Made by a program: the position numbers and the translations under genes. From the NCBI GenBank assembly GCA_003221005.1, contig QHTZ01000069.1:1-45084 (forward strand): a stretch of 45,084 nt of DNA, given 5' to 3'. This DNA is from Gemmatimonadota bacterium. Lineage in GTDB: Bacteria; Gemmatimonadota; Gemmatimonadetes; Gemmatimonadales; GWC2-71-9. The notes under the pieces were generated by a model. It was not told the DNA's origin and did not search any database. It saw only the letters and a program-made list of their open reading frames with translations. Below, piece after piece: positions 602 to 45,084 of the stretch; within the stretch, counting starts at the first letter, position 1, and each line of letters starts with the position of its first letter.

Positions 602-1864
602 ATGGCGACTCCCGTCTACATGGAAGCGCTCTCCCCCACGATGGAGGAAGGGCGCCTCGTGAAGTGGCACAAGCGGGACGGGGACGCGGTGAAGGCCGGC
701 GACACGCTTGCCGAAGTCGAGACCGACAAGGCCGTCATGGATCTCGTGGCGCGCGCCGACGGGGTGTTGCGTCAGATCGCGGTCACCGAGGGACAGACGG
801 TCCCCGTCGGCAAGGAGATCGCGGCGATCGTCGCGCCGGGAGAGGCGGTCGCGACACCGCAGGGACGGGGGACGGGGGACGAGCGACCGGTGGTGACGGC
901 CCCAACGCCAACGGCGCCAGCGCGTACGGTGGCGGTCGCCGCACCAGCGGCCGTAGCGGACGCGACCCGCGTGAAGGCTTCGCCGCTCGCGAAACGGATT
1001 GCGAGGGAGACGGGTCTCGATCTAAAGCAGGTGACGGGTTCGGGACCAGGCGGCCGCGTGGTCAGGAAGGACCTGGAACTGGCTGCGGTGGCCACGCCCC
1101 CCGTTACCGCTCCCAGCGCCGCACCGACTCCACCCGTCCCCCGTCCCCCGTCCCCCGTCCCCGTGTCGCGCACCGGGGCGCCCTACGAAGACGCGCCCCT
1201 AACGCAGATCCGCAAGACGATCGCGAAGCGACTGGCCACCTCGCTCGGGCCGATCCCGCACTACTTCCTCACGACCGAGGTGGACATGGAGCGAGCCGCC
1301 GAGGCGCGCGCCGCGCTCAACCAAGCCCTCGGCACGGAGGGCAAGATCAGCTTCAACGACGTTATTCTCAAGGCGACGGCGCTCGCGCTGAAGCAACACC
1401 GGGCCTGTAACGCCTGGTTCGCGGAAGACCACATCCGTTACTGGAACGAGGTGCACCTGGGCATGGCGGTCGCGGTGGACGACGGCCTGATCACGCCGGT
1501 GATCCGCAACGCCGACCTCAAGTCTCTGTCCGAGATCGGCCGCGAGGCGCGCGAGCTTGCCGAGCGGGCGCGGGCGCGCAAGCTCCAGCCCGCTGAGTAC
1601 ACGGGCTCGACCTTCTCGGTATCGAATCTCGGGATGTTCGAGATCGATCAGTTCACAGCGGTGATCAATCCGCCCGAGGCGGGGATCCTCGCCGTGGGCG
1701 CGGTCGTCGCGAAGCCGGTAGTGGTGGACGGCCAGGTGACCACGCGGCGCCGCATGCGCATCACGATGAGCTGCGATCACCGCGTGATCGATGGCGCAAC
1801 GGGCGCGGTGTTTCTGCGCACGCTCAAGGGGATGCTGGAGAATCCGCTGGCCATGCTGTTATGA
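602..1864 (+). CDS. pdhC: Pyruvate dehydrogenase E2, dihydrolipoamide acetyltransferase
   Basis: Start reassigned to ATG 602. Lipoyl domain (MEALSPTMEEG...EVETDKA), E3-binding domain (ASPLAKRIA...GSGPGGRVVRKD), catalytic DHRVIDG. Confidence 0.95.
   Translation: MATPVYMEALSPTMEEGRLVKWHKRDGDAVKAGDTLAEVETDKAVMDLVARADGVLRQIAVTEGQTVPVGKEIAAIVAPGEAVATPQGRGTGDERPVVTAPTPTAPARTVAVAAPAAVADATRVKASPLAKRIARETGLDLKQVTGSGPGGRVVRKDLELAAVATPPVTAPSAAPTPPVPRPPSPVPVSRTGAPYEDAPLTQIRKTIAKRLATSLGPIPHYFLTTEVDMERAAEARAALNQALGTEGKISFNDVILKATALALKQHRACNAWFAEDHIRYWNEVHLGMAVAVDDGLITPVIRNADLKSLSEIGREARELAERARARKLQPAEYTGSTFSVSNLGMFEIDQFTAVINPPEAGILAVGAVVAKPVVVDGQVTTRRRMRITMSCDHRVIDGATGAVFLRTLKGMLENPLAMLL
862..889 (+). repeat. 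In-frame heptamer array (GGGACGG)n in PdhC linker 1
   Basis: GGGACGG GGGACGG GGGACGA GCGACCG read directly from the sequence. Confidence 0.8.
1134..1161 (+). repeat. In-frame heptamer array (CCGTCCC)x4 in PdhC linker 2, reverse complement of the 862-889 unit
   Basis: Four perfect CCGTCCC copies, encoding PVPRPPSPVP. Confidence 0.9.
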
Positions 1865-1936
1865 ACGCGGAACGTGGAACGGGGAACGCGGAACATCAGT
1901 CACCGGTTCCGCGTTCCGCGTTCGTCGTTCCGCGTT
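1863..1936. repeat. Intergenic inverted heptamer-array hairpin (GAACGCG)n / (CGCGTTC)n
   Basis: GAACGCG GAACGTG GAACGGG GAACGCG GAAC, an 11-nt loop, then GTTC CGCGTTC CGCGTTC GTCGTTC CGCGTT. Confidence 0.92.
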
Positions 1937-1951
1937 AGGGGAGGGGGATCG

Positions 1952-3343
1952 GTGGCAAATCAGTTTGACGTGCTCATCTTGGGGGGCGGCCCGGCCGGCT
2001 ACGTCGCCGCCATCCGCGCGGCCCAACTCGGCATGGCGACCGCGCTGGTCGAGCGCGAGAAGCTCGGTGGCGTGTGCGTGAACATCGGGTGCATCCCGAC
2101 CAAGGCGCTGCTCCACTCCGCCTATCTCGCCAACGCGCTGCGCGACGCCGCCGAGTTCGGCGTCGAGGTCGGTGGCGTCAAGACCAACTACGGCGTCGCG
2201 ATGAGCCGCTCGCGCCGGGTGAGCGACCAGAACTCGAAGGGCGTCGAGTTCCTGATGAAGAAGAACAAGGTCACCGTCGTGAAGGGCAGCGGCACCTTGC
2301 AGGCGGGTCGCAAAGTCAAGGTGGGCAACGACACGTACGAGGCGAAGAAGGCGGTGATCGTCGCGACGGGATCGCGCGTGAAAGGCCTCCCCCAGATCGG
2401 CCTCGAGATCAACAAGACGACCGTGATCTCCTCGGACGAGGCACTGTTCCTCGAGCAGGCTCCCCCGTCGATGGCGATCGTCGGCGCCGGCGCCGTGGGC
2501 ATGGAGTTCGCCGACATCTTCAACGCCTTCGGCACCCAGGTCACCCTGATCGAAGTGCTGCCGCGCATCCTGCCGCTCGAGGACGCCGACGCGTCCGACG
2601 CCCTGGCGAAGAGCTACAAGCAGCGCAAGATCGAGGTCCTGGCGGGGGCGAACGTGAAGAAAGCTGCCGTGGCGAAGGACAGGGTCACGCTCGAAGTCGA
2701 GGCAGGCGGAGCGACCCGCAAGGTCGAAGCGGCGGTCGTGCTGATGGCGGCAGGCCGCGCCGTGAACACCGAGAACGTGGGGCTCAAGGAAACCGGCATC
2801 GAGCTCACCGAGCGGGGCTTCGTCAAGGTGGACCGCAACCTTCAAACCACCGCGCCCGGCTACTACGCGATCGGCGATGTGGCGGGCCCGCCGATGCTGG
2901 CTCACAAGGGGTTCCGCGAGGGCGTGGTCGTCGCGGAGCAGCTCGCGGGTCTGAAGCCACACCCGATCAAGTACGACAACGTCCCGAGCGTGACGTACTG
3001 CCACCCCGAGGTCGCGAGCATCGGACTCACCGAGGCGCAGTGCAAGGAGCGCAAGCTCGACTACGTCGTGGGAAAATTCCCCTTCGCGGCGAACGGGCGC
3101 GCCCGGGGAACGGGTGAGACCGAGGGCTTCGTGAAGATCATCCGCGACAAGAGGTACGGCGAGATTCTGGGCGCACACATCGTGGGAACCCCCGCGTCGG
3201 AGCTGATCCACGAGCTCGCGGTCGCGCGCGAGAACGAATATACCGTCGAAGAAGTGGAGCTCGCGATCCACGCGCATCCAACGATGGCCGAAGCGGTGGG
3301 CGAGGCGGCGCTCGATTCCCTCGGCCGCGTGATCCACCTGTGA
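1952..3343 (+). CDS. lpdA: Dihydrolipoyl dehydrogenase (E3)
   Basis: GTG 1952 follows a GGAGGGGG RBS. Motifs GGGPAGY, GGVCVNIGCIPTK (redox disulfide), GAGAVG, HAHPTMAE. Confidence 0.96.
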   Translation: MANQFDVLILGGGPAGYVAAIRAAQLGMATALVEREKLGGVCVNIGCIPTKALLHSAYLANALRDAAEFGVEVGGVKTNYGVAMSRSRRVSDQNSKGVEFLMKKNKVTVVKGSGTLQAGRKVKVGNDTYEAKKAVIVATGSRVKGLPQIGLEINKTTVISSDEALFLEQAPPSMAIVGAGAVGMEFADIFNAFGTQVTLIEVLPRILPLEDADASDALAKSYKQRKIEVLAGANVKKAAVAKDRVTLEVEAGGATRKVEAAVVLMAAGRAVNTENVGLKETGIELTERGFVKVDRNLQTTAPGYYAIGDVAGPPMLAHKGFREGVVVAEQLAGLKPHPIKYDNVPSVTYCHPEVASIGLTEAQCKERKLDYVVGKFPFAANGRARGTGETEGFVKIIRDKRYGEILGAHIVGTPASELIHELAVARENEYTVEEVELAIHAHPTMAEAVGEAALDSLGRVIHL

Positions 3344-44226: not shown

Positions 44227-44239
44227 GAGAACTCCTTTG

Positions 44240-44294
44240 AGACGTCAGACGTCAGAAGTGAGACGCCAGTACTGATGTCTGACGTCTGATGTCT
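44240..44294. repeat. Inverted heptamer-array hairpin (AGACGTC)n / (GACGTCT)n between atpG and atpD
   Basis: AGACGTC AGACGTC AGAAGTG AGACGCC, centre AGTACT, then GATGTCT GACGTCT GATGTCT. Confidence 0.9.
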
Positions 44295-44297
44295 GCT

Positions 44298-45084
44298 CTA
44301 CCCTTGCAGCGCCTCCGCGCCGCCGACGATCTCCGCGATCTCCTGCGTGATCTGCGCCTGCCGCGCCCGGTTGTAGGTGCGCCGCAACAGGTCGAGCATG
44401 TCCCCTGCGTTGTCGGTGGCGTTCTTCATCGCCGTGCGGCGCGCGCCATGCTCGGCGGCCGCGGTCTCGACCAGCGCGCGGAACATTTGATTCTCGACGT
44501 ACAGCGGGAGCAGCCGCTCGAGGATCGCGTCTGCGGAGGGCTTGAGAATGTAGTTGGCCGCCTGACCGCCCGACCGCCGGTCCGCCCGGGGCGGGGAGAC
44601 GGGGAGGATACGCTGCACGGTCGGCGGCGTCGAGATCGCGCTGTTGAACTTCGCGAACACGACTTCGACCGCGTCGAGCGCCCCGGTCTCGAATGCCCGC
44701 ATCAGCGGGGCCACCAGCTCCGCGGCGTGGGCCGCCGTCGGCCGGTCCCCAATGTCCGCGCGTTGCGAGGCGACGGAACGGCGGGTGAACCGAAAGAACC
44801 CGATCCCCTTTTTCCCGACGAGATGAAGGTCCACGGCCGTCCCCTGGGCCTCGAGCTCCTGGAGGCGACGTCGGGCCTCGCGGATGAGGTTTGCGTTGAA
44901 CGCCCCGCACAGCCCGCGGTTCGACGTGATCAGCACGAGCGCGACCTTCTTGACGCCGGCCGCGCCCGGTTGCCGCAGCAGCGCGAACCGCTCGGCCAGG
45001 GCCGGGGAATAGAGGTCCCCGATCACCTCCGCGAGCGCCGCCGCGTACGGGCGCGCCGCCACCACCCGATCCTGCGCGCGCTTC
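44298..45084 (-). CDS. atpG: ATP synthase F1 gamma subunit (5'-truncated by window edge)
   Basis: ITSNRGLCGAFN, EHGARRTAMKNATDNA, YNRARQAQITQEIAEIVGGA. Confidence 0.97.
   Translation of the reverse strand, partial: KRAQDRVVAARPYAAALAEVIGDLYSPALAERFALLRQPGAAGVKKVALVLITSNRGLCGAFNANLIREARRRLQELEAQGTAVDLHLVGKKGIGFFRFTRRSVASQRADIGDRPTAAHAAELVAPLMRAFETGALDAVEVVFAKFNSAISTPPTVQRILPVSPPRADRRSGGQAANYILKPSADAILERLLPLYVENQMFRALVETAAAEHGARRTAMKNATDNAGDMLDLLRRTYNRARQAQITQEIAEIVGGAEALQG
44556..44586 (+). repeat. 8-bp-period GACCGCC array in frame inside an AtpG loop
   Basis: GGCCGCC T GACCGCC C GACCGCC G GTCCGCC, encoding RADRRSGGQAA on the minus strand. 44558-44580 is identical to 13268-13290. Confidence 0.8.

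Follow-up and report, generated by a model that had tools for sequence, protein, structure and literature searches.

The window analysed here, the whole stretch of 45,084 nucleotides, is contig C52 of G000, as we call the metagenome-assembled genome of a soil bacterium (2.79 Mb in 141 contigs, 69% G+C, 94% complete), which the titles of related loci place in the Gemmatimonadales. At the junction of gdhA with a convergent aminopeptidase gene, the window carries a small gene for a four-helix-bundle (4HB) protein enclosed by two inverted arms of short tandem repeats. This cassette, together with the hairpins lacking an open reading frame (ORF) and the in-frame arrays found in the window and elsewhere in the genome, is the subject of this report. 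The features of the junction, with the arrays detected by Tandem Repeats Finder (TRF), are the following:

9435-10703, forward strand: glutamate dehydrogenase gene gdhA
10703-10762, unstranded: left G-rich arm of degenerate units with a GGCGGTC core (TRF period 16, 3.4 copies, 10703-10757)
10756-11142, reverse strand: 4HB gene (PF05635/TIGR02436, 'S23p'), 128 aa
11207-11287, unstranded: right C-rich arm (TRF 16-mer array, 11245-11285)
11288-12403, reverse strand: aminopeptidase gene, convergent with gdhA

The left arm begins on the final base of the gdhA stop codon and the right arm ends at the stop codon of the aminopeptidase gene, the two being 72-86% complementary over 28-60 nt. The stop codon of the 4HB gene adjoins the left arm, and a leader of about 65 nt separates its start from the right arm. 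The predicted RNA fold of the whole cassette (10698-11292) has a z-score of -5.0 against shuffled sequence, and the terminal arms pair in the minimum-energy fold. The 4HB protein scores 96.1 bits against PF05635 (cut-off 33.8) and 90.8 bits against TIGR02436 (cut-off 24), and does not match the Avd model NF033474. Its nearest solved relative is 2gsc_A (XCC0516; E 5.4e-20); the PDB entries of 2gsc and of a second relative, 2rld, hold five chains each, and the Xanthomonas campestris protein is termed a homopentameric toroid in the portion of PMC4990558 available to us. Contigs from four soil-metagenome runs, compared over positions 600-13600, covered the cassette wholly or partly in all four runs; one contig of run X4 spans both arms, none among the joints listed skips the cassette, and the short-sided joints and loose ends at arrays are read as cross-matches between loci. 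We infer nothing from this coverage.

An earlier note on this DNA had proposed that such arrays are associated with 4HB genes, and the association proved general. Each gene was scored by the best inverted repeat in fixed windows on its two sides and compared with 400 random genome positions, whose 99th percentile was 32. G000 has six PF05635 genes: four lie between TRF-detected inverted arrays, a fifth (on contig C39) scored above the null, and the sixth (C132) has arms of two units only, recognised by eye, with a score below the threshold. Among 13 related genomes, 38 of 45 4HB genes exceeded the 99th percentile. A further set of 80 loci, retrieved with the single window protein as query and made up of close relatives, nearly all Gemmatimonadota, contained 11 with flanks too short for analysis; 62 of the remaining 69, from other species of Gemmatimonadota, were above the threshold, against none of 133 control centres in the same loci. 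The inner distance between arms was 364-602 nt among above-threshold loci, and all four 4HB genes examined in genome G025 have arms of 60-77 nt. Among plasmids, tblastn gave 26 records, of which 23 are cyanobacterial and most of these from heterocystous genera. Of 13 genes examined, 12 exceeded a null drawn from one Nostoc plasmid (99th percentile 28.2), among them 10 of the 11 cyanobacterial genes. Tandem units of about 7-8 nt are visible at most of these plasmid loci, including those of Nostoc punctiforme (twice), Trichormus, Calothrix, Anabaena sp. 90, Pseudanabaena, Geminocystis and others, as well as those of Gemmatirosa and Azospirillum. For the sole failing gene, on plasmid alpha of Nostoc PCC 7120, heptamers are arrayed on just one of the two sides. 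The link between 4HB genes and inverted arms holds in three phyla.

The C39 locus of G000 (G000:C39:1-840, L224) lies on a contig that begins with the 3' part of a putative 5S rRNA gene, identified by eye, and continues into a hairpin of CCAATGT units; left arm and right arm are followed by the 4HB gene, which is on the minus strand, and then by the right arm once more. A nested arrangement of this kind also occurs in Gemmatirosa. On the plasmids of Pseudanabaena, Anabaena sp. 90 and Picosynechococcus (L286, L289 and L287), arm-flanked 4HB genes were seen inside CRISPR-cas operons, twice between cas6 and cas4 and once between cas10 and cmr3.

The sequence of the arms follows the protein that they enclose. 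Protein identity and the number of shared arm 6-mers are correlated (Spearman 0.42, a value reached by none of 500 permutations), and arms share 3.6-5.6 times as many 6-mers as the adjacent leaders when the proteins are at least 50% identical, and about twice as many at 40-50% identity. In the clade of the window protein (homologues 50-74% identical), 45 of 62 arms hold at least two GGCGG cores; the periods there are mostly 8, 9, 10, 15 or 16 around a GGCGG(T) core. Other clades carry other cores across genera, such as the TAGACGCA clade found in G000, G001, G015 and G016. The unit core is thus particular to each 4HB clade, whereas the spacing of units is variable. Shared descent contributes to the correlation; it is the combination of a conserved core with free spacing that suggests recognition of the unit. 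The earlier note had held the elements to be defined by structure rather than sequence; this part of it needs correction, because they fall into sequence families that recur across loci and genomes and track the 4HB clades, and are not defined by structure alone.

The cassettes are a small minority of a genome-wide population. Each array was matched to a later one built of the reverse-complement unit; periods had to be 5-20 nt, copies 2.5 or more, and the gap no longer than 800 nt. G000 contains 103 such inverted pairs, whereas four shuffled versions gave 1, 1, 0 and 2 (two Markov-3 and two triplet shuffles); the period is 7 in 63 pairs, 8 in 25 and 10 in 10. For arrays of period 7, 8 or 10 that reach 3.3 copies, the count is 291, compared with 37 and 28 after shuffling. 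The excess over shuffled sequence on which the earlier note had let its reading depend is present in both counts. ORF-less hairpins outnumber full cassettes by about 14 to 1 (83 against 6). The most recurrent units are GAATGCG-type (11 pairs), GGGACGG (9), GGGACGA (7), GACGGAAG (7), CGGGAAA (6) and CGAGATG (6). When members of a family are aligned, the arm boundaries are sharp and common to all, the loops vary from 1 to 118 nt, and many loops hold a small inner hairpin. Arms contain about four units at any period (4.18 copies at period 7, 3.68 at period 8 and 3.92 at period 10), with 3.3-5.0 copies in 144 of 166 arms, and about 88% of positions are complementary between partner arms. In 76 of 81 hairpins (two ties) and in 95 of 100 4HB cassettes, the leading arm is the G-rich one.

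By position, 35 of the 83 hairpins lie within predicted ORFs, 12 are mostly coding and 23 lie between tandem genes; the remainder are between divergent genes (7), between convergent genes (4) or at contig ends (2). Gene positions across the genome, and with them these counts, come from a purpose-made caller that is crude (2682 genes, 91.6% coding). Intergenic hairpins start 0-13 nt past the upstream stop codon, with the next start codon farther off. At G000:C38:42214-43064 (L222), six tRNA genes (Pro, Arg, Val, Met, Gly, Ala) form an operon whose spacers are occupied by array hairpins; two unit families interleave there, and a second tRNA cluster on C68 looks alike.

Comparison of orthologous junctions among congeneric genomes revealed filled, decayed and empty forms, as listed below:

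gdhA/aminopeptidase, G000: cassette with the 4HB gene on the minus strand
gdhA/aminopeptidase, G001: cassette with a homologous 4HB gene inverted (other strand) and GGCGGGAA arms
gdhA/aminopeptidase, G003: arms with a 120-nt loop between them, in which coding sequence for the C-terminal ~23 residues of the 4HB protein persists
gdhA/aminopeptidase, G002: 13 nt between the stop codons, containing one GGCGGTC
gdhA/aminopeptidase, G004: about 7 nt
gdhA/aminopeptidase, G005 and G006: gdhA not at this place
pdhC-lpd: GAACGCG hairpin in G000; GGCGGTC-type hairpin in G001; none in G002 (17 nt) or in G003, G004 and G006 (10-29 nt)
atpG-atpD: AGACGTC hairpin in G000; TCAGGTG-family hairpin in G001; single array in G002; spacers of 14-21 nt in G003-G005
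after the M23 gene: hairpins of three different families in G000, G001 and G002; none in G003-G006

The 4HB proteins of G000 and G001 at the gdhA junction are about 55% identical, as estimated by eye. In G002, the full cassette L105 has GAATGCG-family arms, and the loops of hairpins of this family (10 loci) resemble its 5' leader; because of this resemblance, we regard the ORF-less copies at many loci as internal-deletion derivatives. Together with the ORF remnant in G003, this supports a derivation of empty forms from full ones, and the gdhA junction shows that orthologous sites do differ by an arm-flanked gene. Cassettes are gained, lost and decaying between congeneric genomes.

The G001 hairpin after the M23 gene (L303) is chimeric, with GGCGGGA units in the left arm and GGCGGTTA units in the right arm, and may be a nested or recombined element; its inner GC-rich hairpin looks like a terminator. 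Also in G001, the pdhC orthologue is split across three reading frames (L008) and one 4HB gene is apparently frameshifted (L098); both may be assembly errors or pseudogenes.

The third form is the in-frame copy. In a KGD-like gene, both interdomain linkers of G000 are encoded by a hairpin (GRGTRDG ... RPPSPVP); those of G002, G005 and G006 are encoded by a hairpin of a different unit (GKREAGS ... LPASRFP), and G003 and G004 have plain Ala/Pro linkers. In a MnmE-like GTPase, arms in two loops bracket a conserved host segment with the NKxD motif, the unit differing by genome and G004 being armless. In-frame copies are real, the evidence being weaker within the window itself. The three states that had been attributed to one class of element are therefore all represented: gene-carrying (10703-11287 and the other 4HB genes of G000), empty at junctions, and in frame.

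The occurrence of hairpins across genomes was examined with the same TRF pairing pipeline on sampled DNA of 11 genomes besides G000, counting pairs of period at least 7:

G004 (same genus, 100% complete): no PF05635 gene; 348 kb; 0 pairs
G014: no PF05635 gene; 170 kb; 0 pairs
G011: no PF05635 gene; 149 kb; 0 pairs (four GC-only hexamer pairs set aside)
G022: no PF05635 gene; 124 kb; 1 dubious pair, GC-only with a gap of 420
G012: no PF05635 gene; 108 kb; 0 pairs
G010: no PF05635 gene; 199 kb; 0 pairs
G001: 8 PF05635 genes; 200 kb; 10 pairs (11 with one of period 6)
G020: 4 PF05635 genes; 200 kb; 11 pairs
G003: 7 PF05635 genes; 100 kb; 3 pairs
G005: 3 PF05635 genes; 100 kb; 0 pairs
G025: 8 PF05635 genes; 200 kb; 0 pairs

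The six genomes without 4HB genes gave at most one dubious pair in 1.10 Mb. The pattern is suggestive, and by it the 4HB gene looks necessary but not sufficient for the hairpins.

Within the window, TRF recovered the arrays that had been picked out from the letters. Besides the cassette, these are:

862-881, forward strand: GGGACGG, 2.9 copies, in frame in the first PdhC linker
1133-1162, forward strand: CCCGTCC, 4.3 copies, in frame in the second PdhC linker; inverted partner of 862-881
1863-1936: ORF-less hairpin of the GAACGCG family (GAACGCG, 4.6 copies, 1863-1894; GTTCCGC, 4.4 copies, 1906-1936)
3753-3795, forward strand: single in-frame GGGGACG array in the C-terminal tail of a membrane protein
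4348-4377, forward strand: in-frame array in LipB
5116-5209: ORF-less hairpin of 13-nt units, 4.7 copies (GACGTC/CGTCGAG core; array 5116-5176)
6725-6815, unstranded: weak or decayed hairpin of GGCGTTGAG units (TRF array 6730-6768)
13206-13288: hairpin of GGGCGGTC units (arrays 13206-13227 and 13259-13288)
21632-21659, forward strand: single in-frame C-rich array (CATCCCG/CATCTCG, 2-3 mismatches) in the DnaE linker after the HhH domain
26777-26869: hairpin of 10-nt GGCGGCA units (arrays 26777-26815 and 26844-26869)
44240-44295, unstranded: hairpin of the AGACGTC family between atpG and atpD (arrays 44240-44269 and 44272-44295)
44558-44588, reverse strand: single in-frame GGCGGTC-type array in a variable loop of AtpG

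The inverted arrangement holds at six sites of the window (1863/1906, 5144/5183, 10703/11245, 13206/13259, 26777/26844 and 44240/44272). The hairpin at 1863-1936 follows the stop codon of pdhC and precedes the ribosome-binding site of lpd; its arms (1864-1894 and 1906-1936) are 90% complementary, the fold of 1858-1942 has a z-score of -7.3, and the sequence that follows, at the only site read for an intrinsic terminator, is AGGGGAGG, without a T run. At the 3' end of the molybdopterin oxidoreductase gene, the arms 5144-5170 and 5183-5209 are 85% complementary (fold 5112-5214, z -4.1), and units like these flank 4HB genes in G006 (L116) and G016 (L127). The hairpin immediately 3' of the M23 peptidase stop codon has the strongest fold (26772-26874, z -10.1), and that between atpG and atpD, with inverted arms within 44246-44295, has a z-score of -3.7 (44236-44299). 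The empty hairpins noted earlier at 1863, 5116, 26778 and 44240 thus stand, with z-scores from -3.7 to -10.1, and the one at 6725 is weak, its fold being no better than shuffles (z -0.42); GGCGTTG units similar to those at 6725-6815 flank a 4HB gene in G003 (L112).

The hairpin at 13206-13288 starts 4 nt past the stop codon of the upstream minus-strand gene, and its arms (13206-13228 and 13259-13281) are 91% complementary (fold 13200-13292, z -8.3). On the minus strand of 13200-13296, a frame that starts from a GTG overlapping the upstream stop codon runs across the entire hairpin, and this frame resembles a signal peptide, with a basic start and a hydrophobic core. The hairpin may be the N-terminus of the next ORF or intergenic; if the frame is used, the export signal is hairpin-encoded.

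For the in-frame arrays of the window, the earlier reading survives in part. The PdhC arms (862-899 and 1124-1161) are 87% complementary and bracket the E3-binding domain, and a peptide similar to that of the array at 1133-1162 occurs in G003. Most of the other in-frame arrays are single arms (DnaE, AtpG and the membrane-protein tail, which differs in every orthologue), some of the arrays named earlier are ordinary linkers, and with its array LipB is no different in length from its orthologues. Of the genome-wide family, one member in the window carries a gene and at least five lack an ORF; several in-frame arrays come in addition. The gene map given earlier was confirmed by Pfam, and the genes named here, other than those of the cassette junction, are:

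602-1864, forward strand: PdhC
1952-3343, forward strand: Lpd
3801-4472, forward strand: LipB
4469-5128, forward strand: molybdopterin oxidoreductase
6896-8242, reverse strand: M20 peptidase
8308-9438, forward strand: TPR protein
18873-22331, forward strand: DnaE
25840-26778, forward strand: M23 peptidase
42763-44226, reverse strand: AtpD
44298-45083, reverse strand: AtpG

A scan of 20 window ORFs gave no match to any transposase family, in line with what had been noted before, and no Rfam family matched in the window. At 37064-37183, proline-rich coding repeats with periods of 3, 18, 21 and 27 occupy a linker in a protein with a TPM domain; these have the look of common low-complexity sequence outside the element family and were left uncounted. 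The system outlined in the earlier note is largely supported, with two corrections: the sequence families described above, and the proposed action at the RNA level, which gained no support, as the mismatches between arms gave no sign of selection on RNA (52 G·U against 49 A·C, no G·U excess on the sense strand).

We consider it fairly probable that the 4HB cassettes are elements resembling the intervening sequences (IVS) of rRNA, with ORF-less derivatives resembling MITEs (miniature inverted-repeat transposable elements), and that the 4HB multimer reads the repeated unit of its own arms. A full cassette consists of a 4HB gene of about 125 codons between inverted arms 370-600 nt apart, each of about four (sometimes many more) degenerate units of 7-16 nt. 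The 4HB ring, a homopentamer in solved relatives, would recognise the repeated unit, roughly one unit per subunit, in a manner that may be likened to the reading of spaced triplets by TRAP (tryptophan attenuation protein). Such recognition would conserve the unit and could maintain or spread arms in trans, those of ORF-less copies included. In transcripts, the arms are expected to pair in a stem of at least 30 bp that, by analogy with the rRNA IVS, would be cut by RNase III; we propose that insertion would leave host genes undisturbed because RNase III would cut the stem. Full copies encode only the 4HB ORF and have no transposase partner in them. A mechanism based on reverse transcription, like that of diversity-generating retroelements (DGR), was considered and rejected for G000, as no match to PF00078 was found in its genome (94% complete).

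Several facts weigh against this proposal. The evidence for recognition of the repeat by the protein is a correlation, which shared descent of gene and arms would also yield, and a test for cognate units proved too lenient, since 27 of 33 families passed it along with 70 of 165 shuffled-unit controls. At periods 7 and 8, arm length is equal (29 nt), so that a limit on length fits as well as a limit on unit number. The balance of G·U and A·C mismatches leaves the RNA-stem part of the proposal without support from selection. The contrast across genomes (pairs in three of five 4HB-positive and none of six 4HB-free genomes) comes from a small sample of related genomes, and 4HB genes are not sufficient, because G025 and G005 gave no tandem-array hairpins. 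No target-site duplication was found at the gdhA and pdhC junctions, the two read base by base. Three facts the proposal leaves unexplained: arms around host sequence (the MnmE NKxD segment and the PdhC E3-binding domain), for which simple hairpin insertion fails to account; the G-rich arm coming first almost without exception; and the occupancy of all four compared junctions in both G000 and G001 by different unit families, for which hot spots or in-place rewriting are therefore needed. Taken together, the unexplained facts point to strong hot spots, in connection with which the small inner hairpin of many loops may be noted, or to in-place rewriting of units.

An unlikely alternative is that the hairpins are host RNA elements (stabilisers of 3' ends, intercistronic processing sites or terminators), born locally by slippage and kept by selection, and that the 4HB genes are unrelated selfish passengers with a preference for landing in hairpin loops, as in 23S rRNA helices. 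Their start just past upstream stop codons, their presence in operons (pdhC-lpd, atpG-atpD) and tRNA spacers, the strength of the predicted stems and the junction occupancy common to G000 and G001 all fit such a role, and Rehm et al. (PMC4692102), in the portion available to us, report the same position bias for Xanthomonas heptamers. However, sense-strand G·U pairs are not in excess, more than a third of the 83 hairpins (35) are inside predicted ORFs with 12 more mostly so, and the congener G004 manages with 10-29-nt spacers and no hairpin in its 348 kb. At 1863-1936, the hairpin is followed by AGGGGAGG and not by a T run. Unit cores follow 4HB clades across genera, ORF-less loops retain remnants of 4HB cassettes, and the empty sites of 7-13 nt in G004 and G002 hint that cassettes insert with their arms where no hairpin was.

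We find it equally improbable that there is no mobile element at all and that arrays grow in place by replication slippage and intrastrand template switching, the families arising from mutational bias or ectopic conversion and the 4HB genes being bracketed merely since hairpin-prone spots acquire arms. This would suit the arms around conserved host segments, the units that differ at orthologous sites between genomes and agree across loci within a genome, the unit-like seeds in empty sites (such as the GGCGGTC in the 13-nt G002 spacer), the missing target-site duplications at two junctions, and inter-arm mismatches that resemble neutral decay. It does not suit the presence or absence of whole arm-gene-arm units between congeners, the leader-derived loop shared by ORF-less copies at 10 loci, or the recurrence of the same unit-protein pairs in different genera at unrelated loci. 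Moreover, a general mutational bias is unlikely because G004 and five other 4HB-free genomes of similar GC are without arrays.

That the G-rich arrays are regulatory repeats forming G-quadruplexes, with incidental inverted partners, seems very unlikely. Several families have G tracts (GGGACGG), the G-rich arm leads, and the available portion of PMC4692102 interprets the Xanthomonas heptamers in this way, as has likewise been proposed for Nostoc; but many families lack a GGG run (GAATGCG, AGACGTC, GACGGAAG, CGAGATG), the partner arm at about 88% complementarity would offer a duplex that competes with the quadruplex, and the 4HB link is left unexplained. The least credible alternative, palindromes of the repetitive extragenic palindromic (REP) or REPIN type moved in trans by REP-associated tyrosine (RAYT; Y1 HUH) transposases, draws on two PF01797 genes in G000 and on the dispersed, hairpin-forming nature of REP elements, and we rejected it as largely refuted, since both Y1 genes are flanked by other, non-tandem palindromes and are unlinked to the arrays, G020 (100% complete, 11 pairs in 200 kb) has no PF01797 match, and 4HB genes flanked by arrays occur in G005, G002, G015 and G018, which gave no Y1 match. 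The two RAYT-like Y1 genes lie at G000:C27:17650-18400 and G000:C66:6280-7010, each with its own REP-like palindromes, and one palindrome copy on C66 (about 6985) is inside a predicted coding gene.

Comparative genomics here ties together two puzzles, the heptamer repeats and the S23p ORF. To our knowledge, the S23p ORF of rRNA IVS has been without an assigned function for thirty years. From sequence comparison, the 4HB protein becomes a concrete candidate for a repeat-binding factor, and a class of selfish cassettes without a recognisable transposase is suggested. These cassettes remodel protein linkers and operon junctions, and annotators of such genomes should be aware that segments taken for a 'linker' or 'signal peptide' are, in dozens of cases, element-derived. 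More tentatively, and as a possibility that we hold doubtful in its full breadth, the S23p/Avd-like ring may be a sequence-specific reader of short tandem repeats that maintains, spreads or rewrites its cognate arrays genome-wide without a conventional transposase, so that the short tandemly repeated repetitive (STRR) sequences, the Xanthomonas GGGAATC repeats and the IVS stems would be footprints of one gene-linked system in several phyla. If so, orthologous sites would keep an element while its unit family changes by genome because of in-place rewriting. The finding may bear on the origin of bacterial heptamer repeats generally.

Among openly readable papers, supplements aside, we found none linking 4HB/S23p genes to dispersed tandem-array hairpins, ORF-less derivatives or in-frame copies. 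Several known systems share parts of this configuration. REP/REPIN elements with their RAYT are also dispersed hairpin-forming repeats at gene ends, unlike the present case in that RAYT-like genes here sit beside other palindromes and genomes with arrays can be Y1-free. Avd of the DGR is pentameric and binds nucleic acid. It has a related four-helix-bundle fold, and one relative, L128, weakly matches the Avd model (26.5 bits, cut-off 80); however, G000 has no reverse transcriptase and no template or variable repeats. Rickettsia palindromic elements are inserted in frame in protein-coding genes at tolerant positions, but their sequences are unrelated to those described here, whose arms are tandem arrays linked to a gene family and may bracket host sequence. 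In Drosophila foldback elements, the arms themselves are made of tandem subrepeats. Both foldback elements and MITEs share with our elements the terminal inverted repeats, the variable loops and the many non-autonomous deletion derivatives of a few gene-carrying copies; unlike MITEs and DNA transposons, the cassettes have no transposase partner and no target-site duplication at the two junctions read, and their only gene encodes a helical bundle of 125 aa.

Tandem heptamers have been known in cyanobacteria since about 1990, and these repeats serve in strain fingerprinting. Like the elements of G000, the STRR and Xanthomonas heptamers are mostly intergenic, lie nearer to the upstream ORF, often form inverted pairs and vary between close relatives. 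Xanthomonas has 70-75 inverted pairs of GGGAATC heptamers, of which 7-11% are intragenic, as given in the portion of PMC4692102 available to us, whereas 47 of the 83 hairpins described here overlap predicted ORFs. The link with 4HB genes is made here; in the same portion of that paper, the term 'S23' occurs 0 times. A preprint on Nostoc (10.1101/2022.06.06.494920), in the part accessible to us, treats the origin of heptamers as unsettled and speculates on a yet-unidentified protein partner.

The closest counterpart is the IVS of 23S rRNA, which carries an S23p ORF in Leptospira, in Coxiella and in the Xanthomonas-type. The gene belongs to the same PF05635/TIGR02436 family, and the ORF lies likewise in the loop of a long stem of terminal inverted repeats. 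In Coxiella, the available portion of PMC4990558 describes a terminal stem of 28 bp cut by RNase III, and 2-3 tandem heptamers, with a fourth that is degenerate, ahead of the S23p start; strains differ in how many heptamers they have. It also traces the idea that the IVS ORF serves mobility to 1993, since when these sequences have been under suspicion of being selfish or mobile. Unlike an IVS, the window cassette sits between gdhA and the aminopeptidase gene and not in helix 9, 25 or 45 of 23S rRNA, and its relatives are found within ORFs, next to 5S rRNA, in the spacers of tRNA operons and just past stop codons. The arms of these elements, moreover, are explicit tandem arrays of many unit families, and ORF-less derivatives greatly outnumber the full copies. 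We would class the finding as a dispersed form, hitherto undescribed, of the IVS/S23p element.

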